From an uncultured Rhizobium sp. (GTDB lineage Bacteria; Pseudomonadota; Alphaproteobacteria; Rickettsiales; UBA1997), in the NCBI GenBank assembly GCA_964580715.1, contig CAZOKU010000004.1:1-55362 (forward strand): a stretch of DNA of 55,362 nucleotides. The letters are read 5' to 3'. Position numbers and translations under genes: made by a program. The stretch's first letter is position 1; every line of letters begins with the position of its first letter. Shown here in pieces: positions 806 through 50,904 of the stretch. Below the pieces are notes generated by a model. That model was not told the DNA's origin, made no database searches, and worked only from the letters and a program-made list of their open reading frames with translations.

Positions 806-1339
806 ATGCAAACTGTTGATCTTCTAGGATTATTTAAAGCGGCGATTTCTGGTGATCAAACTAGTTATGCAAAATTTTTAGAGGTAAGTGCTAAGATTTT
901 GAGATCTTTTGTGGCAAAAAGAATTGCTAGAAATGATGTTGAGGATGTGGTGCAAGAAATTTTGATTTCCATTCATAAATCACGGCATAGCTTTGATGCA
1001 AAAAGGCCGATCATGCCTTGGATTTTCTCTATTGCGCGCTTTCGAATTGCGGATCATCTTCGCAAAACTTATGCAAGTATAAATTTTGCTGATGTTGATT
1101 TTGATGAATTATGTGAAGTTTTGCCTGATGTAACGACTAGCAATGAAAATCACGAATATGTAAATGACCTGTTAAAAAATGTTGAACCTCTTAAAAAAAA
1201 CATTTTACTGATGCTTTATGTTGAAGGTTATAGTGTTAAAGAAGTTGCAGGAAGCCTTAACATGAGCGAGTCGGCGGTTAAAGTTGCTGCACATCGTGTA
1301 ATTAAAAAAATAAGGAAAGAATGGAAACCAATGAGCTAA
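806..1339 (+). CDS. sigF: ECF-type RNA polymerase sigma factor (SigF-like)
   Basis: Region 2 (EDVVQEILISIHK...PWIFSIARFRIADHLRK) and region 4 HTH (YVEGYSVKEVAGSLNMSESAVKVAAHRVIKKIRK). Overlaps the downstream DUF1109 gene by 19 nt. Confidence 0.85.
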   Translation: MQTVDLLGLFKAAISGDQTSYAKFLEVSAKILRSFVAKRIARNDVEDVVQEILISIHKSRHSFDAKRPIMPWIFSIARFRIADHLRKTYASINFADVDFDELCEVLPDVTTSNENHEYVNDLLKNVEPLKKNILLMLYVEGYSVKEVAGSLNMSESAVKVAAHRVIKKIRKEWKPMS

Positions 1340-1959
1340 TTGCAAAATTAGTGAATGAACAGAGCAAAAAACCTCTAAAAACGCCGCAATATTATGCTGT
1401 GATTCTTGTGGCTATGATGTTTTTTTATGCTGTTATAATCCAATATTTTCTAGGGTTTCGTAGTGACTTAGCAATTAAACTTCGGCAATTGGCATTTGAT
1501 ACAGAATTATTGTTGCTGATTTTACTGCAAATTAGCGCAATTTATGCTGCGGTTTTAATGCTTTATCCTGATAAATATCAAAAGAAATCATTAGTTAAAA
1601 TTCCTTTTATTTTACTTACCTCAATTGCGATTTTTTTGATTTTGCAATCTTTTTTACAAATCAATTCAGAAATAATTTCATCACCAGATTCACATAAAAT
1701 AGAATGCTTGATTTGTATTGCTGCAGTTGCTTTTTTACCATCTTTACTGATATTTGTTTTGCTAAAAAAAGGCAATTCAACAAGTTATTCTCAAGCAGGA
1801 TTTTTTGCAGTTTTGATTGCAACAATAATTGGTTGTATCACATTAAGGTTGGCTGAAAATAATGATTTAATTTCTCACCTTGTTATTTGGCACTATTTAC
1901 CAACCCTTTTGTTTGCGTGCCTAGGAGCATTTTTAGGAAAATTTTTACTGCGGTGGTAA
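1321..1959 (+). CDS. nrsF: NrsF-family (DUF1109) membrane anti-sigma factor
   Basis: About 6 predicted TM helices. N-terminus METNELIAKLV resembles DUF1109 starts. Translationally overlaps the ECF sigma gene, as in the Caulobacter sigF-nrsF pair. Confidence 0.75.
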   Translation: METNELIAKLVNEQSKKPLKTPQYYAVILVAMMFFYAVIIQYFLGFRSDLAIKLRQLAFDTELLLLILLQISAIYAAVLMLYPDKYQKKSLVKIPFILLTSIAIFLILQSFLQINSEIISSPDSHKIECLICIAAVAFLPSLLIFVLLKKGNSTSYSQAGFFAVLIATIIGCITLRLAENNDLISHLVIWHYLPTLLFACLGAFLGKFLLRW

Positions 1960-1976
1960 ATTTTTTTAATTTCTTT

Positions 1977-2002
1977 GTAACCAAAAATTAAATTTTAACG
2001 AA
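1977..2002 (+). promoter_or_regulatory. Candidate SigF-type ECF promoter GTAACC-N16-CGAA upstream of the precursor gene
   Basis: GTAACC at 1977-1982, an exact 16-nt spacer, and CGAA at 1999-2002, 60 nt upstream of the 2063 ATG. Confidence 0.55.
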
Positions 2003-2062
2003 TTAGTTTATGTAGCGATTAAATTTAAATCGTTATCAATTATAAAATTAAATTTTAAAACT

Positions 2063-2329
2063 ATGTCAAATTCTAAAAAACTTGCTAAGGCTGCTCTAGC
2101 TGGGCTTTTTGCTGCTAGCATTTTAACTGCTAACTCTTCTTTTGCTGCTGATCATGCAAAATCATCATGTCATGGCAAAGATAAAGCATCAGCTGAAAAA
2201 GCTAATTGCAAAACTGCTGATGGCAAAGAAAAACACGCTTGTAAAGGCAAAAATTCTTGCAAAGGACAAGGTGGCGACGGAAAAAACGCTTGTAAAGGAA
2301 AAGGTTCTTGCCGCACTAGCAACGAATAA
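2063..2329 (+). CDS. bufA: Bufferin-type RiPP precursor: Sec-signal peptide plus Lys/Gly-rich core with 6 Cys
   Basis: Signal peptide ...ANSSFA/AD. Six Cys lie in repeated contexts (SCHGK, NCKT, ACKGK, SCKGQGG, ACKGKG, SCR). The gene sits immediately 5' of a DUF692 gene. Confidence 0.75.
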   Translation: MSNSKKLAKAALAGLFAASILTANSSFAADHAKSSCHGKDKASAEKANCKTADGKEKHACKGKNSCKGQGGDGKNACKGKGSCRTSNE

Positions 2330-2340
2330 TTTTATTTGCT

Positions 2341-2380
2341 AACAAGAGGTGAAAATTTTTGCCTCTTGTTAATTTTTTTT
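2341..2380 (+). terminator. Intra-operon hairpin plus T8 (candidate attenuator/partial terminator) between precursor and modifying-enzyme genes
   Basis: AACAAGAGG (2341-2349) pairs with CCTCTTGTT (2362-2370) across a 12-nt loop, followed by T8 at 2373-2380, which abuts the 2381 ATG. Confidence 0.55.
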
Positions 2381-3616
2381 ATGAAAGATAAAACAATTTT
2401 CCCACAGGCTGGCTTTGGATTGGGGCTTAGGTCGAAGCATTACGAATATATTTTTGCAACTAAACCAAAAGTTGACTGGTTTGAAATTATTTCAGAAAAC
2501 TTTATGGAAAGTGGTGGCAGGCCAAAATCTAATCTTGCCAAAATTAAAGAGCTTTATCCAATCGTGATGCACGGCGTTTCTATGTCGATTGGCACTGTTG
2601 ATCCGCTGAATTCTGAATATCTAAAAAAACTTAAAAAATTAATAAAATGGGTTAAACCGCTGTGGATTTCTGACCATCTTTGCTGGACTGGCGTTGCCCA
2701 TAAAACCACTCACGATCTTTTACCTTTGCCCTACAACCACAATGCTTTAAAGCATGTCGTAAAAAGAATAAAAGAAGTGCAAGATTATTTGGAAATGCCT
2801 TTAGCACTGGAAAATCCTTCAACTTATTTAGAATTTAAAAATTCTGACATTTCTGAAGCAGAATTTATTGCAAGAATGGTTGAGGAATCAGGATGCAATT
2901 TGCTGCTTGATGTAAATAATGTTTATGTCACTTGCTATAATCACCGCCTTGATCCAAAGAAATATCTCGATTCTTTGCCACTAGAAAAAGTGATTCAAAT
3001 TCATCTTTCTGGCCACAGCAACAAAGGCAATCACATTATAGACACACATGATGATCACGTGATTGATGAGGTGTGGAATTTATATAAATATGTGGTTAAT
3101 AAAGCTGGCAGAACGCCAAACACCATGATTGAATGGGATGACAATATTCCTGAATTTAGCGAGCTTTTTGCTGAATTAAACAAAGCAAAAGATACAGCGC
3201 GTGATGCTAAAAATTATATTTTACCACAAATTTCCATTCAAAAACCACAAGAAAAAATTAGCAAAAAAACATCGCTAGAATCTTTGCAGATCTTGATGCA
3301 AGATGCCATCATGTTGGGGCAAAATTTTGATAGTAAAGTTGAAAATTGGATTTTAGATAAAACAGATTTTTCTGCCAAACAACAGCTAAATGTTTATGTT
3401 AACGCTTATCGCTGGCGCTTAAATGATGTGGTGTCTGAAGATTATGAAGTTTTAAAAAATTATTTAGGCGAAAAAAAATTTAACAATTTGATTTGGAATT
3501 TTGTCAATGAAGAAAAGCCCGACCATTTTAACATTGCCAAATATCAATTAAAATTACAGAATTTTTTAGAAAAAAATATCCTGACGACATTTTTGCTCAT
3601 GAATTATGCAAACTAG
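2381..3616 (+). CDS. bufB: MNIO (DUF692, BufB/MbnB-like) enzyme fused in frame to the N-terminal part of a DUF2063 (BufC-like) domain
   Basis: DUF692 pattern: [11 protein letters not shown]...WFEIISENF...HGVSMSIG...WISDHLCW...ALENPSTY...LLDVNNVYV...HLSGHS...IEWD. The same ORF then continues with LQILMQDAI...[12 protein letters not shown]..., which looks like DUF2063. The start is uncertain: ATG at 2381, while the ORF track uses TTG at 2336. Confidence 0.8.
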
Positions 3617-4023
3617 AAACTGTAATAGCAGCAATGCATGAACATGAAGAAACCGAAGTTTTAACTAAAGAACATCTAAAAAACATCACAGCAGAAAAAT
3701 TGTTAGAAATAAAATTATATCCGCGCAAAGCCTTGAAATTGCTTGAGTTTGAATATTTGACGAATAAATATTATCAGCAAGTTATGGATGAAAAAAAGCC
3801 ACAGCAAAAAAAACAAAAAAGTTATTTGGCTGTGTTTCGCCATGAAAATTCAACGTGGCGCATGGATTTAGAAAAAGAAGAATTTCAATTACTGAAAAAA
3901 TTATTTACCAAAATGAAAATTGGCGAAGCTTTAGCAAATGATCAAAAAACGTCACCTGCTTTAGTTAAACAATGGTTTTCAAAATGGATTAACAACGGGC
4001 TGCTTGCGGCTCATAATTATTAA
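3574..4023 (+). CDS. DUF2063 (BufC-like) C-terminal portion, reached from the preceding ORF by a -1 frame change in an A7 run
   Basis: This frame is open from 3532 and reads ...[29 protein letters not shown]..., continuing the DUF2063-like sequence. The ORF track lists only 3634..4023. Confidence 0.6.
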
Positions 4024-4035
4024 AAAAATATATGC

Positions 4036-4199
4036 ATATACCAAAACATAAATCTATTGATAGTTTTTACTTCGCCTTTTTGGTAAAAATTTACTCGAGA
4101 AATAACGCTGTATCGCCTGATACAGCTTATATTTCTTGTCGTAATTTTTCCTCAAAAATTCTTTGTAAAAACTATCAATAGATTTATGTTTTGGTATAT
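4036..4199. mobile_element. 164-bp MITE-like element with 34-bp perfect terminal inverted repeats
   Basis: 4036-4069 ATATACCAAAACATAAATCTATTGATAGTTTTTA is the exact reverse complement of 4166-4199. There is an internal hairpin at 4107-4126, and a solo half-copy at 18121-18176. Confidence 0.8.
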
Positions 4200-4638
4200 A
4201 CTTAAATTTCTCATCATTTGCCCAAAAAAAATCGCTTCTCATTTTGAATGGGCCGGCCCTCTTATAGCGCGCATCATAGTTGGCTATGTTTTTATGTTAA
4301 CTGGCCTTGCAAAACTACAAAATCTTGACGCTATCATTGAAAATTTTGAATATTGGCAAATTCCATTTCCACATTTTACCACACCTTTCGTTGCAGGATG
4401 GGAGTGTTTTGGAGGGCTATTCTTAATGTTAGGATTTCTAACCAGAATCTGCGGCGGCGCCCTTTCTGTTGTGATGATTGTTGCAATAATCTCTGCTAAA
4501 TTTATGGAAATTGACTCACTAGAAACTTTACTTGGATTTGAAGAAGCAATTTACATCGCCGTCTTTGCCTGGCTTGCCATCTGCGGCGCAGGGAAAGTTT
4601 CTGTTGATTATTTGATAGAAAGGAAGTTTACAAACTAA
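4186..4638 (+). CDS. DoxX-family membrane protein
   Basis: PLIARIIVGYVFMLTGLAKL motif and 4 TM helices. It occupies the last position of the bufferin-type operon. The annotated ATG lies inside the MITE-like TIR, so the start is uncertain. Confidence 0.75.
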   Translation: MFWYILKFLIICPKKIASHFEWAGPLIARIIVGYVFMLTGLAKLQNLDAIIENFEYWQIPFPHFTTPFVAGWECFGGLFLMLGFLTRICGGALSVVMIVAIISAKFMEIDSLETLLGFEEAIYIAVFAWLAICGAGKVSVDYLIERKFTN

Positions 4639-5945: not shown

Positions 5946-8900
5946 CTAATATATTTCCGCTCTTGCGCCAAAATTAGAATTCGTCTCATCAGCAATTGAA
6001 AGCATCGCAAAGCCGCTGTTTTTTAGTTTGGTGATTAGTTTTTGCTCAATTTGGCGGGCTTGGCTTTTGCCAGATTTGATGCTGGTGTAGAAAAATTCGC
6101 ATTTTCCTTTGTTTCTGTGAGATATGACGCGGTGTAAAAAATTATCCGTTTCACCGGCATAATAAAAATTATTTGCGGTTTTTAAAACATAAACGATGCT
6201 GTGGCCAATGTCGTTTAAAGGCGGAGTTTCATTTTCTTTTAGGTTTTTTATTTGCGAAATTTCAGTTTCCGCTATTGCAGCTAAAATTGATTTTATGTGA
6301 TCAGTTGAATTTTTGCCGTTTAATTTCAAAAAAGATTCCACCAAATTATTTTCTTTAGCGCCCCCCACACCCACAGCATCTAAGCTTTCATAGCATTGCT
6401 CAATTTCTTTTGCTCGCGCAATTATTTTTTCATCAACGCCAATTTTTTCCGCAGTATAAAAAGCCGAAGAGTTTAAATCAAAGCCTTCAACAACATGATA
6501 AGTTGGAATATCGCCGTCACACTTCATTTTAATCAACCTAACATTTTGCAAATTCACTGCTTTATTCGCAAAAATTTCATGCCAGTGTGTAGCAAAAATT
6601 GAGCGAATATTTTTTTCTGCCAAATGCTCTAAAACACTTGCAGCAATTGCATGCCCAGCTTTTGACTCTGTGCCCTTCCCCAGTTCATCAATCAACAAAA
6701 AACTTTTTTTTGTAGCATCACGAAGTGCCACTTTTATGTCAGTCATTTCAACTGCAAAAGCAGAAAGACCAGCTTCTGGATCGTCACTGGCGCCAGTTCT
6801 GACATACCAGCCATCAATTGCTTGGCTGATAGAAAGTTTTTTTGCTGGAAACATAAAACCACAAGAACCAATCAGTGTTGCTGCAGCAAGCGACCTGATC
6901 AGCGTTGATTTTCCCGACATGTTATGTCCAGTAAGCAAACAAGTGCCGTTAAAATTAATGGAATTTGTAACTGCTTCAGACGACTTCATCCAGTAGGGAA
7001 AAAAGTCGGTGATTGCAATTGATGAATTGCCGTTTGGTTGTTCGTCATACTTCGACAAGCTCAGTATGACTGGCTTAGCTTCAACACAACCCATACCTTG
7101 TTTTTCCTTGGCATCATATCCCTTGGTGTCATACTGAGCCTGTCGAAGCATGACCTGCTCGGACTCTTCACAACATGCTTCGACAAGCTCAGCATGACCG
7201 CTAGTGTTTTCATGACCGATGCCTTCATCACCACCATTAAAAAAATTCAGCGTCCAACTTTTCACCTGGCATTCTTTGATATGCAAATAAAAAGTTTTGA
7301 GCAAATTAGAAAAAGTCGCAAGATGAATAATCGGCAAACAATAAGGCGAAAGCTCTTTTGCAGCTTGTTTCAAAATTTGTCTAATCGCTTCATGAGTTTT
7401 TATCGCAATATTTTTATATTCCGCCAAAACTTCCTCAACTTCCTTTACAGTCCAGCGATCTTTAACTTCTTTGCCATAACGATCAATTGGACGAATCAAC
7501 TTAAACTCTTCCACCGCTTTAGCCCCAACGCTTCCCAGCATCCAAATTGCATTATTATGAATATCGTAAGAAAGCGCGATTCGCTTAGATTTTTCCACCG
7601 TTTGAATTATTGGAATCAACTTTGTCGTTAAAATTTCTTCATATTTTTTTGCCAATTTTTCAGATTTTTCATATAAATCAGCGATTTCTTTGCTTGAAGT
7701 TTTGGCAATTCGCCCACGAAATTCTTCTTCAATGCGCTCAAATAAAGTTGCGGGAATCAGCTCGCTGCTTGGAACGTAAGGCGAATCTTCTTCCTTTGGC
7801 AAAATATCCGCTAAAATAGCGATTATTTTTTTCGCCGTATTTTGTAAAATTTTTTCTTCTGATTTGATCGAAGAAATATAAGAGACAATTTCTAAACTAT
7901 TTGCGATAAAATTTTGCGAAAAATTTTTCTGACAATTTAAAAAAATTTCTGCCAAACAAAATAAATCTTTCAAAATTTCTGGATGCGCCTCACTTTTATT
8001 CAAAGTTTTAATATATCTAACCGGATTTGACACAATCAAAATCGGCAAATTTTTATTCTCAGCCAACAGCTCTAAAATCGCCTGTCTCAGGCTATCCGCA
8101 TATTTCTTCGGCGGCGGATTAAGCAAAATATTGCGCACAATATATTTACAAGTTGCAGGGCTTCCTTTCGGCAACATCAAAGCCACTAAATCAGGAATTC
8201 CTTTTTTTGGCAAAATGCCAATTTGCTCTGCAGTTTGCTGATAAAGCGGATAAGGACAATCAAGGGTTTGCAAATTTTCAACTGTTGTAAAAGGAACATT
8301 TGCATCCAAACCCAAATCAATTTTTATCAACTCTTCCACGCGCGTGGCAAAAGCTTTTGAAGAATATCCACTAATTTTTACTAAATTCTGAAATTTCAAA
8401 TTTGCGGCATCACACAAAGTTTTAGAAATTTTGTCATGAACAAAAATTCGATTCATGCGCCCGCTATATTTATTAAGCCTGATGGTTGCTGCCTCTTCAG
8501 TTAATCCTTCCAAAATCAAAACCGTTCGCAAATCAGGATTAATTTCAAGCAACTTAACTCCCTTGATGCTTGTTGCAATTCCAAATTCTGGAGGCGCTTC
8601 TGGAAAGCAAATGTTGGCCTTGTGGCTCATCGCCAAACCATAAGTGTAAGTGGGCGATGACGGAGTTATAATTTCAGAAATAAATCTAACTTTGCGACCT
8701 TTTTTGTGAATGTCATCGGCTTGTTCACACACCACAACCGAAAATCCCGCTTCGGTTAAATCATTTAAAACCGCTTGAATGTTAGCAATTGGCATCCCCG
8801 CTCTTGGCCCTTTTCTGCCCATGCGATTGATGCCACAATGTTCCACTAAAAAAATCGAATCAACACCCCAAGTTTCATAAAATTCACCAATTTGAATCAA

Positions 8901-9143
8901 AACAATTTTTTGCGGATGAATTTTTTTAACGCGAAAAAGAAAATCAATGTTAGAATCCGAATCACCATAATTATGCTTAAAACCCTTCCAAAAAGGCTTT
9001 GCAGCATCTCCAATTCCAAGCGGCATGCTCGCGTCAAGATCTTGCATCATCCTTGTTGCAACTGGATGAGCAATAGTTTCAAATCGTGAATTCCAAAATG
9101 GTGATTGGATGAATAAATCATACGGAAGAGATTTTTTCACCAT
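5946..9143 (-). CDS. MutS-family protein with C-terminal GIY-YIG nuclease domain (plant MSH1-like architecture)
   Basis: N-terminal mismatch-domain motif IGEFYETWGVDS. Walker A TGHNMSGKST and Walker B FLLIDELGKGT, then THWHE. The C-terminus IVYVL-x6-FYYAGETDNFLHRVISHR...QIEQKLI has the GIY-YIG pattern. Confidence 0.8.
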   Translation of the reverse strand: MVKKSLPYDLFIQSPFWNSRFETIAHPVATRMMQDLDASMPLGIGDAAKPFWKGFKHNYGDSDSNIDFLFRVKKIHPQKIVLIQIGEFYETWGVDSIFLVEHCGINRMGRKGPRAGMPIANIQAVLNDLTEAGFSVVVCEQADDIHKKGRKVRFISEIITPSSPTYTYGLAMSHKANICFPEAPPEFGIATSIKGVKLLEINPDLRTVLILEGLTEEAATIRLNKYSGRMNRIFVHDKISKTLCDAANLKFQNLVKISGYSSKAFATRVEELIKIDLGLDANVPFTTVENLQTLDCPYPLYQQTAEQIGILPKKGIPDLVALMLPKGSPATCKYIVRNILLNPPPKKYADSLRQAILELLAENKNLPILIVSNPVRYIKTLNKSEAHPEILKDLFCLAEIFLNCQKNFSQNFIANSLEIVSYISSIKSEEKILQNTAKKIIAILADILPKEEDSPYVPSSELIPATLFERIEEEFRGRIAKTSSKEIADLYEKSEKLAKKYEEILTTKLIPIIQTVEKSKRIALSYDIHNNAIWMLGSVGAKAVEEFKLIRPIDRYGKEVKDRWTVKEVEEVLAEYKNIAIKTHEAIRQILKQAAKELSPYCLPIIHLATFSNLLKTFYLHIKECQVKSWTLNFFNGGDEGIGHENTSGHAELVEACCEESEQVMLRQAQYDTKGYDAKEKQGMGCVEAKPVILSLSKYDEQPNGNSSIAITDFFPYWMKSSEAVTNSINFNGTCLLTGHNMSGKSTLIRSLAAATLIGSCGFMFPAKKLSISQAIDGWYVRTGASDDPEAGLSAFAVEMTDIKVALRDATKKSFLLIDELGKGTESKAGHAIAASVLEHLAEKNIRSIFATHWHEIFANKAVNLQNVRLIKMKCDGDIPTYHVVEGFDLNSSAFYTAEKIGVDEKIIARAKEIEQCYESLDAVGVGGAKENNLVESFLKLNGKNSTDHIKSILAAIAETEISQIKNLKENETPPLNDIGHSIVYVLKTANNFYYAGETDNFLHRVISHRNKGKCEFFYTSIKSGKSQARQIEQKLITKLKNSGFAMLSIADETNSNFGARAEIY
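7044..7198. repeat. Three alternating-orientation copies of a ~27-nt palindromic core (GTCATRCT-GAGCYTGTCGAAG-YATGAC) inside the MutS-like CDS
   Basis: Copies at 7044-7070, 7128-7154 (inverted) and 7174-7198. The host frame stays open and translates them as VILSLSKYD, MLRQAQYD and GHAELVEAC. Confidence 0.85.
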
Positions 9144-9341: not shown

Positions 9342-11933
9342 TTATTTTCTGCCTCGTTGGTTAGGCACAACTTTAGAAACGTCAGGCGCTTTAGGATCAG
9401 CAGCGGGGGAAACTTTAGCTCCTTCATTGTCTAACTCAGCGCCCGCACTAGCACCTCCTACAGCACCAGTAACAACAGCACTTTCATAAAAAAAAGAAGA
9501 AGCTGGAGGAGCGGAAGGAACAGCTGCACTTGCAGTTGCACCTCCGCCAGCACCACCTCCAGATTGTTTGGCGACAAACTGAGCTCTTCTTCCAATTCCC
9601 GTCCTGTCGCCAGCAGGAGCAACAATACCAGCACCTCTGCCTAATTCCTCATAACCAACAAGAGGAGGAGCGGAAGGAACAGCAGAGGAAGGAGCGGGAG
9701 TAACAGCGGCAGCACCAGCACTCGCACCTCCACCTCCTTTCTCATGACTATCAAAAGGATCCCATCCAGCAGCACTTCTATCAAAAAAAGAATAATCTGT
9801 AAGGGCTGAAGGAACAACTGCACTTGCACCTCTGCCTAATTCCTCATAACCAACAAAAGGAGGAGCGGAAGGAACAGCAGAGGAAGGAGCGGGAGGAACA
9901 GCGGCAGCGGCAGCACCAGCACTCACACCTCCACCTCCGCCTCCTTTCCCATGACTACCAAAAGGATCCCATCTAGCAGCACTTCCTTCAAAAAAAGGAG
10001 GAGCGGAAGGAACAGCAGAGGAAGGAGCGGGAGGAACAGCGGCAGCACTCGCACCTCCACCTCCGCCAGCACCAACACCTCCACCACGAGCTTTAGCAGC
10101 CCTAAGCGATTCTAACCATTCTTCTAAACTATGACCACTTTCACTAACAATACCTTTTTGCCATTTTTGGGAAAGCAATCTAACAGATTGTTCTATCATA
10201 GCGAAAGGACTTATAAGATAAGATCTGCCTTTTTTTGCAGGATCTTCTCCTTCTATTATTTTTTTAATCTCATCTTCCCTCTCATCATCCATTCTATATT
10301 CATTCAATACTTTAGCAATTTGTGCTATATCTTTACCCCAAATTTTCTCTATTTTATTATCAGACTTCATTTCAAAAAAAATCTGCAATATTTCCATTAT
10401 TTGACTTGTAGTTAGCACATTACTTCCAAAGAGTGGTATTCTTTTTTTAAGTTTTATCCCTTCACCCGTTCCCAACAACTCATTTGTGCAAAGCCGCTCA
10501 CCTTCTGAATGACCCATAAATAAACACCAAGTAGCCCCAGCAGAGTTCCCATCTCTATAAAGAGCCCTGGCAAAATCAAAATATTTCATTTCTTTAATAT
10601 TTTGACTCATAACCCATAAATAATTTCCTCTATAACTATCCAAAATATTCCATTTTGGATGAACTCCTTCATTGCGATCACTATTTCTTATAAATTCAAC
10701 AATTTTACTTGTTACTAGTTTAGAAGATTCTTCAAAATAGCGCTCCCTGTCTTCATATTCTGGAAAACCGAATACTGTTCTTCCATGATCATCGACTATT
10801 TGTCCATCCAAATAAATAAAAACAATGTGTTTTGCTTGTTTATTTCCTTCTTCAGCAGACTGCTTAAAATATTTATATGCTTTTCTTAGATCTTTTTCAA
10901 CCCCTTCACATCCTATAAAGTAATAAAAACCAATAATAAAATTAGCTTCTCCAAGCAAACTATTAAATTCATCATTCATCTTAGATCTCTTAAATTTCTT
11001 AAATGAATTTACGACCTCTTCAAAATTTAATAATGCATTTTTATGATCTTTCATTCCATGATATGCAAAACCAAGAAATAACTTTGCAACCTTACTATCA
11101 ACAGCTTTTGCAACCCTATTAAGTAAGGTGATCGCACGACCATATTCCCGATTAGCATTAAAAATCGCACCCATAAGAATCTGTGCATCCCGAGCGCCAC
11201 CTCGCGCAGCTTCTAAAATGAAATCTAATCTGCCTTGACATATACCGAGTCTATAAAGTGCATTTTGTCCAGTGCCCGTCTCGAAGGAGCTTTTCTGAAC
11301 ATCAAAAAAATATCTTTCTGCTTCACTTCTATACCGAGCAGAGTCTTTTCCCAAAAGGCTAATCATATCATAACAAACACCTAATATAAACTTCACTTTC
11401 TCACTTTTTTCTATCTCAAATGCTTTGTTCAAAGGTTTAACAGCCCTTTCAAGCCATTGCTCAGTATCTTTATTGAAAATCCCGTCAAGGTAAAACGATT
11501 CTAATACACCACGTATCAAAAATAACTGTGCATTAGTTTTAAAATGATTCTTCGTAGAAGAACCATCCATTAAAGTAGAACTTCCAAAAAAATAATTTGA
11601 TTCATCATTCACATAACTCCGTAGTTCGTCTAATGCTACATAGTCTAATAATAGAGAAGAAAGTTCCTCATCAATTTCTTTTACGAAAAATGGATAATTA
11701 AACAAATAAAAAATCATGGAAATAGCATAATCCTCTGGGTTATTATATCTGCGTCCAAGAGGGGTCATAGCAATTTTTCCTTTAACACTTTCAAGAATTT
11801 CTGGTTGAGGAAACGATCTTAGTAAATCTCTGTACCATTTTTTTTGATAAGCTTCTTCTTCTGATATCTTATCTGTTGCAAATGTAAGTGCTGGAAATTT
11901 AAAGGGTTCAACAGTTGCGCTAGGTCTTGTCAT
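9342..11933 (-). CDS. Sel1-like/TPR repeat protein with Gly/Ala/Pro-rich tandem-repeat C-terminal tail
   Basis: Sel1-type repeats (e.g. GFYYFIGCEGVEKDLRKAYKYFKQSAEEGNKQA). The C-terminal ~260 aa consist of repeats with APSSAVPSAPP and WDPF(G/D)SH(G/E)KGGGG. Confidence 0.7.
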   Translation of the reverse strand: MTRPSATVEPFKFPALTFATDKISEEEAYQKKWYRDLLRSFPQPEILESVKGKIAMTPLGRRYNNPEDYAISMIFYLFNYPFFVKEIDEELSSLLLDYVALDELRSYVNDESNYFFGSSTLMDGSSTKNHFKTNAQLFLIRGVLESFYLDGIFNKDTEQWLERAVKPLNKAFEIEKSEKVKFILGVCYDMISLLGKDSARYRSEAERYFFDVQKSSFETGTGQNALYRLGICQGRLDFILEAARGGARDAQILMGAIFNANREYGRAITLLNRVAKAVDSKVAKLFLGFAYHGMKDHKNALLNFEEVVNSFKKFKRSKMNDEFNSLLGEANFIIGFYYFIGCEGVEKDLRKAYKYFKQSAEEGNKQAKHIVFIYLDGQIVDDHGRTVFGFPEYEDRERYFEESSKLVTSKIVEFIRNSDRNEGVHPKWNILDSYRGNYLWVMSQNIKEMKYFDFARALYRDGNSAGATWCLFMGHSEGERLCTNELLGTGEGIKLKKRIPLFGSNVLTTSQIMEILQIFFEMKSDNKIEKIWGKDIAQIAKVLNEYRMDDEREDEIKKIIEGEDPAKKGRSYLISPFAMIEQSVRLLSQKWQKGIVSESGHSLEEWLESLRAAKARGGGVGAGGGGGASAAAVPPAPSSAVPSAPPFFEGSAARWDPFGSHGKGGGGGGVSAGAAAAAVPPAPSSAVPSAPPFVGYEELGRGASAVVPSALTDYSFFDRSAAGWDPFDSHEKGGGGASAGAAAVTPAPSSAVPSAPPLVGYEELGRGAGIVAPAGDRTGIGRRAQFVAKQSGGGAGGGATASAAVPSAPPASSFFYESAVVTGAVGGASAGAELDNEGAKVSPAADPKAPDVSKVVPNQRGRK
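9631..10085 (-). repeat. GC-rich coding tandem repeats (195-bp and 138-bp spacing) within the Sel1-protein tail
   Basis: AGGAGGAGCGGAAGGAACAGCAGAGGAAGGAGCGGGAG recurs at 9663, 9858 and 9996. GCACCTCTGCCTAATTCCTCATAACCAACA recurs at 9631 and 9826. Confidence 0.85.
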
Positions 11934-15455: not shown

Positions 15456-16328
15456 ATGAAAAACTCACTGCCAATAAAATCAAAAGCGCATGAAGCGCGC
15501 ATTAAAGAAATTGCCGAAATTATCGCTAAAACAGCTAAGGATAAAATTGCTTTTATAATTTTATTTGGTTCTTTTGCCCGCGGTTCTTGGGTTCGCTATC
15601 GATATTCTGAAGGCAATGCAATTTATGAACATGCTTCTGATTATGATTTTTTAATCATTACAAAACACAACCGACAATTAAGCAGCAATGCTAATTTTGA
15701 TCTTGAGAGAAAAATTAAAAGAAAAATTGATGATTCAACCTCAGTTAGAGAAATACATCGCAGCCATCTCATCATTGAATCAATCAGCAACGTAAATAGC
15801 GAACTTGAAAAATCCCAATTTTTTTTCTCTGATATAAAAAAAGAAGGGATAATTCTTTTTGACTCTGGTGAATTTAAATTGTCAAATTCAAAAGATCTTG
15901 ATTTAGATCAAAGAAATAAGATTATTAAAATAAATTATGATCATTGGTTTGAAAGCGCTGCTGGATTTTTAGTTGATTATAAAAGTGCTTTTGCAAGAAA
16001 TGATTATAAAAAAGCTGCATTTTATTTACATCAAGCAACTGAAAGTTTATATAGCTGCACTCTTCTTACTCTAGGCGGATACAAACCAAAATCACACGAT
16101 CTTGAAGAATTGAATCAACTTTGTGCTTTTTATTCTCCTGATTTTTTGACAATTTTTCCACGAGCTAATAAAAAGCAAAAAGAATGTTTTAAAATATTAC
16201 AACAGTCTTACATAGAAGCTCGTTACAGCAAAAGCTTTAATATTACTAAAGGACAATTAGAATATTTATTTGCAAGAATAGAAAAATTACAGAATCTGGT
16301 TGCGGCAATTTGTAAAAAAGATTTTTAA
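15456..16328 (+). CDS. Nucleotidyltransferase (Pol-beta fold) fused to a HEPN-like domain
   Basis: NTase motif LFGSFARGS...SDYDFLI. The C-terminal helical domain has FYLHQATESLYSC...KSHDLEEL...IEARYS, a HEPN pattern. No Rx4-6H RNase motif was seen. Confidence 0.7.
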   Translation: MKNSLPIKSKAHEARIKEIAEIIAKTAKDKIAFIILFGSFARGSWVRYRYSEGNAIYEHASDYDFLIITKHNRQLSSNANFDLERKIKRKIDDSTSVREIHRSHLIIESISNVNSELEKSQFFFSDIKKEGIILFDSGEFKLSNSKDLDLDQRNKIIKINYDHWFESAAGFLVDYKSAFARNDYKKAAFYLHQATESLYSCTLLTLGGYKPKSHDLEELNQLCAFYSPDFLTIFPRANKKQKECFKILQQSYIEARYSKSFNITKGQLEYLFARIEKLQNLVAAICKKDF

Positions 16329-17537: not shown

Positions 17538-18134
17538 ATGAAAAACCACACCTTAGTTAAATCACAACTCGATCAAAATAAAACTGGCTGGATGAAATCT
17601 TTTTTAGATGGATTTTCACAAGATGAAAATGGCGATCCAATTCCTTGGATGAGCTATCCAGCAATTGAATTTTTAGAAAAAAATTTAACACAAAATCACG
17701 AAATTTTTGAATTTGGCGCTGGCGCATCCACCTTATTTTTTGCCAAAAAAGTTAAAAGCGTGACCACTCTTGAAACCAACAAAAGATGGTTTAATTACGT
17801 AAAAGACTTACTTAAAGAAGAAAAAAAAGTTCAACTTTTTTTAATGGAAGACGGCCTCAAAAACCCACAATACGAAGCCTTCCCACAGCAACTAAACAAA
17901 AAATTTGACTTTATTATAATTGATTCACTAAAAAGATTTGAATGCGTTAAAAATTCAATCAATGCCTTAAAACCCGATGGCAAGCTGATTCTTGATGATT
18001 CTGAAAGAAAAAACTACAAAAAAATCTTCGATTTTTTACAACAAGAAAATTTCCTAAAACAAGATTTCATCGGCATCGCACCCGGACAGTTGAGACTAAA
18101 AAACACTACGATTTTTTGGCATATACCAAAGTAA
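17538..18134 (+). CDS. Putative class I SAM-dependent methyltransferase
   Basis: Motif I IFEFGAGASTLFFA, acidic residue in TLETN, then FIIIDS and LKPDGKLILDD. Confidence 0.55.
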   Translation: MKNHTLVKSQLDQNKTGWMKSFLDGFSQDENGDPIPWMSYPAIEFLEKNLTQNHEIFEFGAGASTLFFAKKVKSVTTLETNKRWFNYVKDLLKEEKKVQLFLMEDGLKNPQYEAFPQQLNKKFDFIIIDSLKRFECVKNSINALKPDGKLILDDSERKNYKKIFDFLQQENFLKQDFIGIAPGQLRLKNTTIFWHIPK

Positions 18135-18176
18135 GAATCTATTGATAGTTTTTACTTCGCCATTTTGGTAAAAATT
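18121..18176. repeat. Solo half-copy of the 4036-4199 MITE-like element, overlapping the stop codon of the methyltransferase gene
   Basis: 18121-18176 aligns with 4036-4091 at about 52/56 identities. Confidence 0.8.
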
Positions 18177-18271: not shown

Positions 18272-21200
18272 TTAATGCACTATCCCATTTCTCTCAACAA
18301 CACCAACACCTTCCATCGGGTTTATAATAGTGCCAGCTATTTCTCCTTCCATCACAGAAGAACTTCCAGCTCCTGCTCCGCTTTTCCTTTCAATTACTGC
18401 TCTTTCAACTAGTCTTGTAATATTGATATTACCTAAACACTTAGAAAACTCTAAAATGCTTATACGTTCAAAACCGTTCTCTTTCATTGCTGGATCTGGA
18501 TATGGTGTTTTTAAATCGACTCCAGAACATTGAAGTAAAATATCCACTATTTCTTCACAACCATTACAAACAGCAATGAAAAGAGCTGTTTCCATTACAG
18601 AACTTTTACTATCAACATTTATACCAAGTTTAATAAGAAATGAGACCAGCTTTATATTTTTGGTTCTAACTGCAAGATGTAGCAAAGTTTCCTCTGCTGC
18701 AAATAGAGTATTAACAAGGCTGGTATCCATCATCAGCATCCTTTTTAAGGCTCTATTGTTACCTTCTTTAAGAAGCTCTGTAATATTATCTTGTCGTAAA
18801 TATTCAGGTTTAGTCATCCACTTTTTTTCCCGTTGAACGGCAATTTGGTCTATAACACTTTTTTCAAATCCATCCAATTTTGATCTATCTAGATATTGGG
18901 AAACATCTAAACCACGATCATCTATTGCAGAAATATCAAATTGTGGCAAAGAAGCGAAACAATCAAATATCTTTTTACACATATCTTTTTTGTTATGTCC
19001 TAAAAGATTTTCAAATGCCATATGCACTGCAGTGCGTCCTAAACTATCTTTAGCGTTAATGTCAGCACCCGCCATAGCAAGTCTTTTTATATATTTAAGT
19101 ATTCCACGATTACCAGACTGAATATATCCTTCGACCAAATAATGGATTGCGCTTAATCCATAGACATCTTTCTTACTCAATTCTTCTTTATTTAAAGCTT
19201 TTCTTTCTTCTAAAAAAATATCTAACAATAATTCTTCTTTATTTAAAGCTTTTCTTTCTTCTAACAAAATATCTAACAATTTGGTATCATATTTTATACA
19301 AGCCAAAATCAAAATATTTCTTCCATCTAGATCTTCTTGATCACTTAAATTGCCTAAAGATTTTGATTTAATCTTTTTTCCGAATTCTGTTTTCTTTTCT
19401 GGAATCACACAATCACTAACTCTCGAAGACGAGCGCAAGACATTGCCTATAATACAAAATCTACGAAGCTCCGATTCTTCATATCTTTTTTTACACTCTT
19501 CCTCCAACATAGTACTACTTTCTAATGAGGCTTTTAACATATTTCTTATTTTTTGATAAGTTGCTCGATTAGTAACCGCGCCTTCAACTTCTTTTGCACT
19601 AATCTCTATTGCATCGAGTGCTCTATCACCTGTTCTGGATGGGCTAGTCTTTAAAAGAATAAATTCCTTAATATTTCTATATGAGTTCCAGAATCCAGAA
19701 TTTTGTGAATCTGGAAAAGGTTCCAAAGAAAGCAAATATTTTATAACTTTATCATATCCACATTTTACTGCTTTATGAAGCACTGTTAGTCCACTAGAAC
19801 TTTTATCCCATATATTTGCTCCGCAGGATTCAACTAACAATTTTATACATAACAGAAAGTTATCCTGATTGTTCTTTATACTACCTCCAGCGATAAGACT
19901 CATTAAAGAATCTGTTGATTCTATTTTGCAATTATAAATTCTTCTGCCTATTCCATATTCGATACAAAACTTTAAAGCTTCTGGATCCTCATTTATTACA
20001 CAAATCTGCAAAAAATTTCGACCCTCATAATCCCTTGCATGTGGATCTTTCTTCAACAAAGACAAAAAACTACCGTCTATCATTCCTCTGTCATATAAAC
20101 GACTAATTATAGGTTGTGCTGCATTAATAATAATTTGGTTTTTAATCATCATAGAAATATCATGATTATTACAATCAAAAGCAGCTTTACCATGTTTGTT
20201 TCTTAATTCTAATTGACATTCTGGCTGCGCAATCAAATATGTAACTATATCTTCTGCTTCTGCCCTAGCGGCAAGCATCAAAATTGAATCACCCGAACCG
20301 TTCTGATAATTAATGCTAATAGAATTTTCAGCTAGAAATTTCTGCAAACCAATAAAATCATTCGACAGGATCAATTGTTTTATATTTTGATTATAGGAAA
20401 CATTTCCTTTTGGTGATTGTATATCTGCCCCTGCCCCCGCTCCTGCTCCTGCTACAGCTCCGACCTCTTCTATATCAAAAACACTATCAACATCATCAAC
20501 AGAAAACTTAATTTCATCTTCAGCTGCATAATATTTCCGATCTTCTGGCGATTCTAGAATTCCAAGTTTATTTCTAATTAATTTTATAATGTTAATATTG
20601 CCATGGCATTTTTCTAATTCTAGGATGTTGAATCCTTGTAAATCTCGCATCATTAGACTAATTTCAGGATGCGTAAGCAAAAGCTTAATCATTGCTTCAG
20701 ATCCATTTTGCACAGCAATATGCAAGGCAGTTTGACCTAAAAAATTTCTTGCATTAATATTGATACCAATTTTTAGTAATAATTTAGCCAAATCTAAATT
20801 TTTGATTTTAGCAGCAATATGTAATAGATTATCTCTATACAAATATTCCTCATTAATCGAATCAATTTTTACCAATGCAAATTTTATCAATTCTATATTA
20901 TCAAATTCCCTAATATTTTGTAATAAAATTTTGCTTTCTCTTGAATAATGATATTGTTCCTCAGTACCATTAGTAATGCTAAATACTGTTTTACCGTCAT
21001 GTATTCTTGATTCAACTTCCGATAAATTACAAAAGAACTTTTTTATTCTTGATTCCTTAGAAGGTTCATATTCTAAAATGAGATCTTTTGGACTATAATT
21101 ACGACTATTTCTAGCATTAGCATCAACACCTGCTGAAATAATCATTTCTATGCACAAAATGAAATTATTTTCATTACGTAATGTATTTGAATCACTATAA

Positions 21201-24200
21201 TAGAAATATATTGCATTATGAAGCAAATTATTGCCACAGTTATCTATAACATTTAATATCTCTATAATATTTGTTTGAGAAGCTTTTTTTAGATGAGTTT
21301 CTAACATACCTGGATCACACGATTCTAAAGCTCTTATAATATCATTTTTTAGAGATTCTGTACGTCTAGGAAGCCTCTGAAAAATTGGCATCAATCCAGA
21401 ATCAACCTCTAATTCTAAGGAACTTTTTTCTGAAGTCTTTCTTAATAAATTTGATATATCACCACATAAGCCCTCGATCTCTTGATATTGTTCACTGTCC
21501 TTAATATGAACATGCAATTTAATCCATTTATCAAGTTTTCCTAAAGCAAAATCACCCAAAACATAAATCGGCGAATTAATTTTTATTTTATTATCAGAAC
21601 CTAATTTCTCATAATCATATCTAATATCAAAACCATACTTGAACAATAATTTTATACATCTGACACGATTCAATTCTGAAACTTGAATTCTATAATTATC
21701 AGAAAAAGCAACATCCATTAGAGTTAGAATTTTTCTAGTTCCTGTGATTTTATTTTCAAATCTAACTATTTGATCATTAAGTTTTTCTCCACCAATTCCA
21801 ATTTTAATACATTCTTCTAATAGCTTATAATATCCATTACTCAAGCATATCATTAGAATATTAAAACCATCTTCATTTTGTGCATGAGGATTTTTCTTTA
21901 ATAACTCAAAATGTTCATCGCTAATACAACCAAGACTCTTTAGTTCGATTATGATAGGATATGCCGCTCTGCTAATAATTTTCTTTATAATCAAATTTGC
22001 GATATAATCATTTTCACAATCAAAGGCAGCCTTACCATATATATTCCTTAATTCCAAATTGCATTCTGGCCTAGAGATTAAATATCTAACAAGAATCTCA
22101 GCTTGTTTATTTGAATTATTAGCAGCTAGAATCAAAATTGAATTTCCTTTATCGTCTAAATGATTTATATCAAGGTTACTTGTTTCCAAAAATTGTATTA
22201 AACCTATAATATTAACTTCTGAGATAAATTGTTTTATTTTCTTATCAACGCACTTTGAAAGAAAATTTATCGTACTAATATTAGTAAACCATCTTGCATA
22301 ATTAAAAATATTTAAAGCTTCCTCATCTCCTTTATTATATGAACTAACTTTAGGATTTGACATTACAATTATCTCAATTATCTCATTTAATCCATTTTGA
22401 ACTGCAATATCTAGGGCAGACTCTTCTAAAACATTTCTATAACTAACATCAATACCTTTTTCTATAAGCAGACGAACTAAATCTATATCTTTTTTTCTAA
22501 CCGCAAAATGCAATAATGTTTCCCCGCCTTCAAATATGTCCTCAAATAAAAACTGACATATCTTACTATCTTTACTGCAATCCAACAACAATTCTTGAAA
22601 ATTAATATAATGAGCTTCTGTTTTTACCAATATTTTCAAGCATTCTATACTATTTGCTTTCACTGCATGATGAATAGCACTAAGTCCAAAATCATCCTGC
22701 TTATTTAAAATATCTATCTTATCTTTCTTTGATAGGATAGGAATCATTTTTTGCAAATAAAATTCTAATAGATCACTTCTACCATGCTTACAAAACCACA
22801 TCAAAAAATTTATTCCTTCTGCATTTTCAATGATATAATGATAACGAGAATGCATTAAATTCTTATCCATAAATAATTGTAAGTCTTCTATGGAACCTTC
22901 TATCGGAATAGCAGAAACATAATCTGGCTCGTAAAACCATAGATTATTCTTAATTTTACTTCCAAAAATTATATGAGGATGTGATATAACTTCATTTCTA
23001 CCAATTCCATATTCAATGCAAGTTTGTAAACCTTCTATATCACCATACCGATTACAAATATCTAAAAGATTCAAATTTTCTTTGTTCTTTGCATGAGGAT
23101 TTTTCTTTAAAACATTGAAAAAATACTCATCATCAAATCCTTTTGCTTTTAACCTTTCTATTATTGGTTGTGTTTGTCTGATCAAAATTTGGTTTTTGAT
23201 CATCATCGCAATATAATCATTCCGACAATCAAAAGCAGCTATCCCTTTTTTGTTTCTTAACTCTAAATTACATTCAGGATTTGAGATTAAAAATCTAACA
23301 ATCTCAATAGAACCATGTCCAGCTTCAGCAGCATACATCAAAATCGAATTACCAGATCTATCTTTAATATTTACATCAATATATTCTTTATTATATTCTT
23401 TAAAAATACTTACAAAACACTCTAAGTCACGTTGTTGAATTGCTTTTATTAACCATCTAAAAATTAAATTTTTTATCTGTATTTCTAACTCTGATTTTGT
23501 TTTATCAAGAGACGCTTCTTTACCTCTTATTATTTCTATCTCTTTCCTTAAATACTCTATATCTAAAAACCTTTCTGATCCGCTTTTAATTTTACTCTCG
23601 ATTAACTTCAAAATATTGGCATTGCCAGAAAACCTTGCCAAATCTAAAACATCAAAACCATTACGGTATACTTTATGCAAATTAATCTGATCACTTTCAA
23701 CTAGAGTTTTAACTATTTCTTCTGAACCATTTTCCACGGCAATAGATAAAGCTGTATCTTTTAAATCATTTTCAGCATTAATATCTGCACAAACTAGCAA
23801 AAGAAAATTAACTAAATCCAAATTCCGCATTTTGACGGCAATATGCAATAAATTTTGTCCATTAATGTATTTATCGTTAATTGAATCAAAATTTACCAAT
23901 ATAAATTTTTTTAAATCATCGAAGCTTTCTGATTTAATTAATTTTAATAATTCTGGTTTTAAATTAGTTTTTTCTCTTTTTCTTAAAACTTCTCTAAATT
24001 TCTTTGCAGAAACATTTCTTTCGATAATTGCACTCCAAATCAAATTTGAAATATCTTCACTTTCGCAATCAAAGGCAGCTTTTCCTTCTTTATTTAAAAT
24101 CTCTAAATTACAACTAGACTGCAAGGTTAAAAACTTAACAATATTTTTAGCATTAAATATGGCTGCATTAATCAAAATTGAATTTCCTAAATCATCCACA

Positions 24201-38433: not shown

Positions 38434-39798
38434 ATGAGAGAACTAAATTCAGGTGGAGTAGATGTTAATGCTTTTGAGACTTCTGGTACGAATCAAGGAA
38501 TGACTGCTTTGATGATTGCTGCAGAATCTGGATATGGAGAAAATATTGACACTTTACTTGAACATGGAGCAGATCCTGATCTTTTTGCAACTTCTGGTAC
38601 GAATCAAGGAATGAATGCTTTAATGATTGCTTCCCGTTACCCCAGCGATAATCGCGTTAAGGCTTTAGCTAGAAAAGTAAAAAATATTAATGATGTTGCA
38701 ATTTCTGGTACAAATCAAGGAATGACTGCTTTGATGATTGCTGCAGAATCTGGATATGGAGAAAATATTGACACTTTACTTGAACATGGAGCAAGTCCTG
38801 ATATTTTTGCAACTCATGGTATGAATCAAGGAATGAATGCTTTAATGATTGCTTCCAGTTACCTCAACAATGATCGCGTTAAGGCTTTAGCTAGAAAAGT
38901 AGAAAATATTAATGATGTTGCAATTTCTGGTCCATATGAAGGAATGACCGCTTTGATGATTGCCGCACAATCTGAAAAAAAAGAAAATATTGACACTTTA
39001 GTTGAATATGGAGCAGATATTAATGCTGTTGCAACTTCTGGTCCATATGAAGGATTGACTGCTTTGATGATTGCTGCCAAATGGTTCAGAAATGATAGCG
39101 TTAAAGCTTTGGCTGGAAAAGTAAAAAATATTAATGCTGTTGCAACTTCTGGTCCACGTGAAGGATTTACTGCTTTGATGATTGCCGCACAATCTGGAAA
39201 AAAAGAAAATATTGACACTTTAGTTGCATATGGAGCAGATGCTAATGATGTTGTAACTTCTGGTCCATATGAAGGATTGACTGCTTTGATGGTTGCCGCA
39301 CAATCTGGAAAAAAAGAAAATATTGACACTTTAGTTGAATATGGAGCAGATATTAATGCTGTTGCAACTTCTGGTCCATATGAAGGATTGACTGCTTTGA
39401 TGATTGCTGCCGAATGGTTCAGAAATGATAGCGTTAAAGCTTTGGCTGAAAAAGTAAAAAATATTAATGCTGTTGCAACTTCTGGTCCATACGCAGGAAA
39501 AAAAGCTTTTGACCTATCTGTAAATAATTTAGAAATTGCTATAACATTAATTCAGTATGGGGCAGTTGTAACAGATGAAGATATTACAAAATTTACATCC
39601 GAGGAACACAAAAAGATAATTAGAGAAGAAAGGGAAGAACAAACTAGAAGAGATCAAAGATGGGGTGGGTTTAGAAAAGAATGGATTGAAATTGGAGTAA
39701 GATCTCAAAAAAATGCAAAAATTCCTGAAACATCACCAGAACCTGGAGAAGGAAGTCGCATTGATTCTCCTGATCAAGATCGCACTCCCCGATCATAA
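38434..39798 (+). CDS. Ankyrin-like repeat protein: nine and a half 37-residue repeats plus a charged C-terminal tail
   Basis: Units (T/I)SG(T/P)xxG(M/L)TALMIAA..G..ENIDTL(L/V)E(H/Y)GAD.. alternate with units ...(N/D)(D/R)(S/R)VKALA.KV.NIN.VA. Confidence 0.8.
   Translation: MRELNSGGVDVNAFETSGTNQGMTALMIAAESGYGENIDTLLEHGADPDLFATSGTNQGMNALMIASRYPSDNRVKALARKVKNINDVAISGTNQGMTALMIAAESGYGENIDTLLEHGASPDIFATHGMNQGMNALMIASSYLNNDRVKALARKVENINDVAISGPYEGMTALMIAAQSEKKENIDTLVEYGADINAVATSGPYEGLTALMIAAKWFRNDSVKALAGKVKNINAVATSGPREGFTALMIAAQSGKKENIDTLVAYGADANDVVTSGPYEGLTALMVAAQSGKKENIDTLVEYGADINAVATSGPYEGLTALMIAAEWFRNDSVKALAEKVKNINAVATSGPYAGKKAFDLSVNNLEIAITLIQYGAVVTDEDITKFTSEEHKKIIREEREEQTRRDQRWGGFRKEWIEIGVRSQKNAKIPETSPEPGEGSRIDSPDQDRTPRS
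38479..39477 (+). repeat. 111-bp coding tandem array, including a near-identical 333-bp duplication
   Basis: About 39025-39150 and about 39358-39490 are almost identical. The period is 37 codons throughout. Confidence 0.85.
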
Positions 39799-50822: not shown

Positions 50823-50904
50823 AAACGCCAATTCGGGATAAAAAGAAAAATTTTTGCTTAAGTAAGACGCAGGTTTTCACGCATTTTTATCCCGAATTGG
50901 CGTT
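50823..50904. repeat. 82-bp element with 21-bp perfect terminal inverted repeats (AACGCCAATTCGGGATAAAAA)
   Basis: 50823-50843 is the exact reverse complement of 50884-50904. The core AAGACGCAGGTTTTCACGCATTTTT is shared with 111-135. Confidence 0.85.

Follow-up and report, generated by a model that had tools for sequence, protein, structure and literature searches.

The contig CAZOKU010000004.1 (assembly GCA_964580715.1), deposited as an uncultured Rhizobium sp. and placed by GTDB in the Rickettsiales (UBA1997), carries on its plus strand, at positions 806-4638, a gene cluster that is very probably of the bufferin/captophorin type, that is, a cluster for a ribosomally made peptide metallophore, with a SigF/NrsF-type metal-stress switch controlling it. 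Judged by sequence, every part of the locus matches the bufferin/captophorin blueprint: an extracytoplasmic function (ECF) sigma factor, its NrsF-like membrane anti-sigma factor, a secreted cysteine-rich precursor, a maturase built on a multinuclear non-heme iron oxidase (MNIO), and a DoxX membrane protein (Table 1). As assembled, the cluster is either freshly inactivated or mis-assembled at a run of adenines, because that run is one nucleotide shorter than in the two nearest relatives and drops an RRE-type domain (RRE, recognition element of RiPPs, peptides made by the ribosome and modified after translation) from the maturase, and because a palindrome occludes the start of doxX. The window analysed here is the entire contig of 55,362 bp. 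An earlier note made from its sequence had listed six co-directional genes between 806 and 4638; the open reading frames (ORFs) do lie at those coordinates on the plus strand, but two of the six belong to one fused gene, which leaves five functional units.

The window was compared with 80 related loci (labelled L001, L002 etc.). L001-L014 are a clade of alphaproteobacterial metagenome-assembled genomes (MAGs), L001 and L002 being the two nearest relatives, and P0002 is an intact homologue of the maturase. The closest relatives of the window are freshwater MAGs, labelled Rickettsiales for the most part. The order sig-nrsF-bufA-bufBC-doxX was found again in eight related MAGs, and the ratio of nonsynonymous to synonymous substitution rates (dN/dS) is 0.05-0.25 across all parts of the operon, a ratio that is unable to date the frameshift discussed below since dS is saturated (0.7-2.9).

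Table 1. Features of the cluster in the 55,362-bp window
Feature	Positions	Strand	Details
ECF sigma factor (SigF-like)	806-1339	+	Pfam Sigma70_r2, r4_2 and ECF; TIGR02937 77.4 bits (cut-off 42.9)
NrsF/DUF1109 membrane anti-sigma factor	1321-1959	+	PF06532 E 9.8e-30, 104 bits, full length
Sigma-F-type promoter GTAACC-N16-CGAA	1977-2002	+	3′ end 61 nt before the bufA ATG
Precursor, bufA	2063-2329	+	88 aa; Sec-type signal peptide and 60-aa Lys-rich core with 6 Cys (Cys-Lys type)
Terminator- or attenuator-like intrinsic hairpin with U8 tract	2340-2380	+	14-bp stem (2340-2371)
Maturase bufB::bufC, first piece	2381-3616	+	411 aa: 398 native residues and 13 out of frame
A7 homopolymer, reading-frame break	3570-3576	+	A8 would give a 547-aa protein
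bufC second piece, other frame	3577-4023	+	last DUF2063 helix and RRE-type domain; mechanical ORF 3634-4023
Palindromic (MITE/RPE-like) element between bufC and doxX	4026-4209		184 nt; arms of 69 nt, 35 nt perfect
DoxX (BufD-like) membrane protein	4186-4638	+	PF07681 67.1 bits (cut-off 23.6); last gene of the cluster

That the locus belongs with the bufferin-type MNIO clusters, as had been proposed, is borne out by the maturase. Its MNIO domain scores above the NCBI equivalog cut-off for BufB (NF050167, 366.8 vs. 310) and matches PF05114 at E 8e-108. The TTG at 2336 is merely a mechanical ORF start; the gene itself begins at an ATG immediately behind a U-tract. Its first piece covers the TIM barrel of the MNIO (residues ~12-272), a linker, and the greater part of a DUF2063 domain (322-396; PF09836, 45 bits, cut-off 27). 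DUF2063 is thus fused to BufB and not the product of a partner gene of its own, as the earlier note had it. The fusion is not peculiar to the window. In the best 120 of 7,512 homologue matches, PF05114 and PF09836 are always found in one protein, 534-594 aa long except for the product of the window itself, and the top homologues are 75-77% identical to the frame-restored 547-aa window protein; intact relatives measure 541-562 aa. Across the 80 loci, BufB and BufC are as a rule fused in the alphaproteobacterial clade (L001-L014), as they are in Omnitrophota; most of the others are split; the Buf1-type loci L022-L027 have separate bufB and bufC, judged by ORF lengths.

The ligand motifs of the MNIO are intact (MHG, SDHL, LEN, LDVNN, HLSGH, DTHD and EWDD), and these columns are invariant in our alignment (A2). 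In sequence and fold the maturase is matched by 3BWW, TglH and MbnB, the MNIO domain reaching PDB entry 3BWW at E 5e-49. In the window the catalytic Asp is followed by another Asp (EWDDN), whereas 3BWW, of the Lys-Cys type, has ERDFN. Such an Asp-Asp dyad goes with MNIOs acting on Cys-Lys substrates (PMC13097082). The dyad is consistent with the Cys-Lys precursor described below, and it excludes the Lys-Cys (EGKCG) type only. We also considered the dyad as a means of telling Buf1- from Buf2-type enzymes, and rejected it because the Buf1-linked loci sampled have EWDDN as well.

AlphaFold2 modelling of P0002, the intact homologue (mean predicted local distance difference test score, pLDDT, 88; predicted template-modelling score 0.83) places a TIM barrel at residues 1-275, then a linker, a helical DUF2063 domain at 299-419, and a predicted three-stranded sheet with helices at 420-547. 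It is this last part, together with the last DUF2063 helix, that the window encodes in its second piece, in another frame. The second piece shares 68-70% identity with intact relatives at their C-termini, runs for 148 codons without a further stop, and has a dN/dS of 0.08 against both L001 and L002. Folded alone (3577-4020), it gave a pLDDT of 89.7, and its best Foldseek match, a weak one (E 0.012, TMq 0.53), was TglI, which partners the MNIO TglH; further down the list came a lasso-peptide RRE. In a fold search with the full-length model, matches to the TIM barrel prevailed, and a profile search against PDB sequences did not reach 3DEE. BufC has been described as a DUF2063 protein with an RRE-type domain (PMC11626156, PMC12452194), and, taken with the weak match to TglI, an RRE-type assignment of the C-terminal domain fits.

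The precursor shows the layout of a secreted peptide. By inspection, its signal peptide divides into n, h and c regions (MSNSKKLAK, AALAGLFAASILTA and NSSFA|AD), and both these regions and the SFA|AD site, likewise judged by inspection, are kept across 100 aligned homologues. The six cysteines stand in the contexts SSCHGK, ANCKTA, HACKGK, NSCKGQ, NACKGK and GSCRTS, and a 51-nt direct repeat within the gene (2206-2307) corresponds to a duplicated CKG unit. In the alignment of 100 members, Cys3-6 are present in 100% of the family, Cys1 in 67% and Cys2 in 77%, and the last four, invariant cysteines sit within KHACKGxNSCKGxGxDGKNACKGKGSC(A/R)TDG.

Curated models place the precursor less readily. 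No Pfam family was matched at E<=0.01, DUF2282 (PF10048) included, and the precursor is thus not of the DUF2282 kind; nor does it have the Buf1 motif C(Y/F)G(I/V)xKxGxNDC. On the NCBIfam BufA2 model (NF050166) its 27.4 bits fall short of the cut-off of 60, where the Buf2 peptides of Legionella and L038 score 87-90. As a DUF2282 peptide also obtains 30.8 bits on this model, the hit marks only a Cys-rich secreted peptide of a general kind. The match covers positions 4-62 of 79; the C-terminal tail of Buf2 with its last Cys is missing and is replaced by GDGKNACKGKGSC, the duplicated CKG unit. The earlier note had put the precursor in a 6-Cys class apart from DUF2282: the separation from DUF2282 stands, but the low BufA2 score, the missing tail and the count of four invariant cysteines do not agree with the 6-Cys class. 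Of the profile matches that the note had proposed as a check, those to DUF1109, DUF692, DUF2063 and DoxX were found, but those to DUF2282 and BufA2 were not. Among captophorins, Gadgil et al. distinguish a 'Cys-Lys' precursor class (PMC13097082), and on sequence grounds the precursor is a Cys-Lys subfamily outside both DUF2282 and canonical Buf2. A profile search recovered 619 representatives (at 50% identity) at E<=1e-3 and 69 at E<=1e-10. The family comprises about 300 clusters at 90% identity and is known from metagenomes only, under the name 'hypothetical protein' apart from one member labelled FixH.

The control region points to the adjacent sigma factor. The sigma gene overlaps nrsF by 19 nt and stands beside it also in L001, L002, L004, L005, L007, L009 and L011. 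NrsF, although a full-length match to its Pfam family, scores 30.8 on the NCBIfam equivalog model, whose cut-off is 300. Its cysteines lie at residues 129 and 132 (within an ECLIC motif), 172 and 200. Caulobacter NrsF has two conserved, functionally important periplasmic cysteines, C131 and C181, and Cys129, Cys132 and Cys172 of the window are near these by residue number. Kohler et al. defined the sequence bound by Caulobacter sigma-F as GTAACC-N16-CGAA (PMC3511200), and buf operons are under SigF control (PMC11626156). The window contains a single exact match to this sequence (0.10 expected by chance), directly 5′ of bufA, and the same motif is found 5′ of bufA in nine related loci (L001, L079, L006, L007, L009, L010, L014, L022 and L025). 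Being unique in the window and conserved in relatives, the match provides good computational evidence for control of the operon by the adjacent sigma factor, in agreement with the regulators named in the earlier note.

Other sigma-F-like strings were seen around the sigma gene. A GTAACC(G)-N17-CGAA-like string lies within the sigma coding sequence of L004, L009, L011, L022, L024 and L025, and, with one mismatch (GTAACG), at 1130-1156 of the window; it could be conserved as coding sequence, or it could be an internal promoter serving nrsF. Exact motifs on the minus strand occur just 5′ of the sigma gene in L003, L004, L009, L011, L022 and L025. They point away from that gene, which suggests divergent regulon members in the relatives; at this place the window carries a gene for tRNA-Asn.

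Between the precursor and the maturase lies a hairpin with a folding energy of -17.1 kcal/mol (z -4.9). The precursor ORF ends 51 nt 5′ of the bufB start, and its stop codon is followed by the hairpin, eight U and the bufB ATG, in that order. L001, L002, L004 and L005 have a hairpin and U-tract at the same site with different sequences, and the hairpin is therefore conserved as a structure. By analogy with other RiPP operons, it would end most transcripts past the precursor gene and let a part read through.

Taken together, and with each step modelled on the biology of the family, the cluster would work as follows. NrsF, with six membrane helices, would keep the sigma factor inactive until periplasmic metal stress frees it for transcription from the promoter upstream of bufA. 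Termination at the hairpin would leave precursor mRNA in excess, and read-through would supply the maturase and doxX. In the cytoplasm, a single chain comprising the MNIO iron enzyme, DUF2063 and the RRE-type partner would work on the precursor: the RRE-type domain would bind it and the enzyme oxidize Cys in Cys-Lys-Gly contexts to 5-thiooxazoles. After Sec export and cleavage by signal peptidase behind SFA, the 60-residue Lys-rich product would bind copper in the periplasm. Conversion of Cys to copper-binding thiooxazoles has been reported (PMC11626156), and what the earlier note said of this chemistry, and of the identity of 'gig' and bufferin clusters, agrees with the literature (PMC11626156, PMC12452194, PMC13097082).

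Several observations weigh against this reading. The maturase, as assembled, is without residues 399-547, which comprise the last DUF2063 helix and the C-terminal domain, and in Caulobacter BufC is needed for modification. The precursor falls below both curated models for bufferin precursors. The start of DoxX is within a 35-bp perfect stem, and its ribosome-binding site is lost. Finally, no sigma-F motif, with up to two mismatches, was found 5′ of the sigma gene in the window, L001, L002 or L004, and hence we do not claim autoregulation. The first and third points also speak against the view in the earlier note that the genome keeps a working system: the assembled maturase has no RRE-type domain, and an inserted palindrome buries the start of doxX. 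We nevertheless prefer the bufferin/captophorin assignment for the kind and control of the locus, and consider the two lesions in turn.

The palindrome is absent from L001 and L002, where bufC and doxX are separated by a spacer of ~20 nt with a GGAG ribosome-binding site; the gap in the window is ~160 nt longer. Its right arm supplies the present ATG of DoxX. Past that point the protein is well preserved, being 84-86% identical to the DoxX of the two relatives from residue 4 on, and it is two residues longer after Met-Phe (MFWYILKF vs. MFILNF in L001). On the NCBIfam HvfX model DoxX scores 61.7, below the cut-off of 80. As RNA, the palindrome folds with -75.9 kcal/mol (z -14.8). DoxX is dispensable for modification and copper protection in Caulobacter (PMC11626156), and the palindrome is for that reason a lesion of less consequence than the frameshift.

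Like Rickettsia palindromic elements (RPEs) and bacterial miniature inverted-repeat transposable elements (MITEs), the element is a short palindromic repeat at a gene boundary, with a long hairpin and at least two copies in the contig; it differs from them in that it is not in frame within a protein and in that it provides a replacement start codon. Nor does it show kinship in sequence with a named element, although no search aimed at this was made. The second copy is partial (18119-18176, 91% identical to the left arm over 58 nt), and comes after an ORF at 17538-18134 and before another small hairpin. A further palindrome with 41-nt arms (7112-7214) is in frame within a MutS-like coding sequence, where it reads HAELVEAC...MLRQAQYD...VILSLSKYDE, like an element of the REP (repetitive extragenic palindromic) or RPE type carried within a protein. 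More palindromes lie near the contig start (12-115 and 239-323), and a 35-nt inverted pair (139-173 and 50824-50858, 97% identical) is spaced 50 kb apart near the contig ends. These palindromes and the inverted pair suggest a family of short dispersed repeats.

The frameshift is a matter of one adenine. Where the window has A7, L001 and L002 both read GAA AAA AAA TAT, with A8. An artefact and a real recent mutation are about equally likely explanations, with a smaller chance that the mutation is real and tolerated.

If the break is an artefact of assembly or sequencing, to which we would give nearly an even chance, the run of the true genome is A8, its BufB::BufC is unbroken at 547 aa, and the cluster is functional save for the palindrome at doxX. 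This DNA is present in a single public run, a freshwater DNA metagenome in which its depth is only ~6x. Logan contigs of that run cover the locus except for 3449-3598, a stretch with A-runs, and so very few reads can come from there. One base of a homopolymer is all that separates the window from the two nearest relatives here, and the downstream frame, stop-free over its 148 codons, retains its low dN/dS. Homopolymer errors at A7/A8 are, however, rare in Illumina-type assemblies, and the palindrome is a second disruptive event at the same locus, as real decay would have it. Independent sequence from the same population was not found either: neither the A7 nor the A8 form, searched for with its flanks, turned up in metagenome contigs, and an exact-protein look-up of the truncated maturase found nothing on record.

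The same palindrome, not present in relatives and burying the doxX ATG, would also suit early genetic decay in a host-associated lineage, in which a real 1-nt deletion removes the RRE-type domain, leaves the peptide unmodified and is accompanied by a mobile palindrome at the doxX start. The aberrant 13-codon tail behind the A7 break, the presence of other palindromes within genes of the window (as in mutS), and the depletion of MNIO-PME1 clusters in Rickettsiales noted by Gadgil et al. (PMC13097082) are in keeping with it. Decay is nonetheless a tentative explanation: none of promoter, precursor, MNIO domain, NrsF and sigma factor is damaged, the frame downstream of the break has accumulated no damage, and the A7 site is without read support.

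A run of seven adenines is also a slippery sequence, and a real frameshift could be tolerated through transcriptional or ribosomal slippage. Alternatively, the RRE-type domain could be made apart as a 129-aa protein, since the ORF 3634-4023 has its ATG right at the start of that domain (residue 419 of 547) and discrete RRE proteins exist in RiPP systems; conservation of the downstream frame throughout would suit either route. We regard tolerance as unlikely. Slippage at A7 is normally infrequent, there is no ribosome-binding site before the ATG at 3634, a protein made from it would lack the last DUF2063 helix, and no such broken fusion is present among the best 120 of the 7,512 homologue matches or the fused loci L001-L014.

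One could go further and see in the locus a distinct bufferin/captophorin subfamily, so far confined to freshwater alphaproteobacteria (labelled Rickettsiales) that are uncultured and probably live with protists. The subfamily would be defined by a maturase with MNIO, DUF2063 and RRE in a single chain, a Cys-Lys precursor that lacks the tail and has four invariant cysteines (KHACKGxNSCKGxGxDGKNACKGKGSC), and Buf1-style SigF/NrsF control with DoxX. It would have arisen by a precursor swap in a Buf1-type cluster and serve against phagosomal copper, and in the window it would be in the course of being lost or be rescued by slippage at the A-run. As a whole this picture is speculative, and we doubt that it holds in all its parts.

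The contig (G+C ~35%) carries a permuted tmRNA of the alpha type and thus belongs to an alphaproteobacterium. The rest of it supports a host-associated lifestyle, as the earlier note had also suggested, by its effector-like genes of the ankyrin and leucine-rich repeat (LRR)-NEL kinds. The eukaryote-like effector candidates are an ankyrin-repeat protein of 2163 aa (18272-24763, minus strand), a second ankyrin protein of 454 aa made of 111-nt tandem repeats (38434-39798, plus strand), and an LRR protein with a NEL domain, a domain of the IpaH-type E3 ubiquitin ligase kind (51032-52699, plus strand). Two long minus-strand ORFs have no Pfam match. One (9342-11933, 863 aa) has ~128-nt repeats at 9615-10123 with a G+C content of ~53%, as against ~35% for the genome, and the other (28666-32532, 1288 aa) has direct repeats inside (29868-30671). 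A protein joining HEPN and Pol-beta-type nucleotidyltransferase domains (15456-16328, plus strand), possibly a toxin-antitoxin or defence module, adjoins a hybrid histidine kinase and a major facilitator superfamily transporter. The MutS-like protein (5946-9143, minus strand, 1065 aa) has MutS_I and MutS_V as its only domains; its last ~80 aa look GIY-YIG-like (FYYAGETDNFLHRVISHRNKG), recalling plant MSH1, a resemblance that Pfam did not confirm.

The class of bufferins/captophorins, peptides that detoxify copper, is very large and was defined recently. Conservation of a cluster in a host-associated, effector-rich freshwater clade extends the class to that lifestyle, and fits the idea that the peptides guard against copper in phagocytic hosts. 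Since the precursor subfamily is missed by both curated models and is linked to sigma/NrsF genes, which a published survey did not see with Cys-Lys (Buf2) clusters, annotation rules would overlook such clusters. A natural single-chain BufB::BufC could also aid structural and biochemical work on how the substrate is presented to the iron enzyme. The known mechanism is not challenged, and both lesions may be trivial.

Among known systems, the locus can first be set beside the buf1 cluster of C. vibrioides (bufA1B1C1D1 beside sigF-nrsF; PMC11626156, PMC3511200). The two have the same components in the same order (ECF sigma factor, NrsF, Sec-exported precursor, MNIO, DUF2063-RRE and DoxX) and the same GTAACC-N16-CGAA promoter. 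The window differs in that its precursor is not DUF2282 (no Pfam match), its BufB and BufC are one polypeptide, its sigma gene is not preceded by a sigma-F motif, and its cluster carries a frameshift and a palindrome insertion.

With Buf2 (BUF_6/12Cys; C. vibrioides BufA2 and Legionella Buf2, which are Cys-Lys captophorins, PMC13097082) the precursor shares secretion, richness in Lys, a repeated N-x-C-K-G and a weak similarity over the first 62 of 79 model positions, and the MNIO shares the Asp after the catalytic Asp. It departs from Buf2 in its score (27 vs. the cut-off of 60), in lacking the G(F/V)..M....C...GG tail with CysVI, and in having four cysteines, not six, invariant in its family. 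In Buf2 of C. vibrioides, CysI and CysVI form a disulfide, the last Cys being in the folded C-terminal tail. Leprevost and co-workers found sigma/NrsF genes in Buf1 clusters and not in Buf2 clusters (PMC12452194). Among our 80 loci, these genes are beside the cluster only in the clade of the window and in Buf1 loci, never in canonical Buf2, so that the window differs from Buf2 also in combining a Cys-Lys precursor with adjacent sigma/NrsF genes.

The oxazolin, fontiphorin and gonophorin systems (EGKCG, or Lys-Cys captophorins; HvfABCX) resemble the locus in having an MNIO, a DUF2063-RRE partner and DoxX, and presumably in 5-thiooxazole chemistry. They differ from it in the order of the precursor residues (Cys-Lys in the window) and in the MNIO motif (EWDDN in the window, not ERDFN), and on none of the HvfB, HvfC and HvfX models does the window reach the cut-off. 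In sum, three modest differences set the locus apart from the known clusters: a fused maturase, a precursor subfamily new to the curated models, and a Cys-Lys precursor with sigma/NrsF genes adjacent to it.

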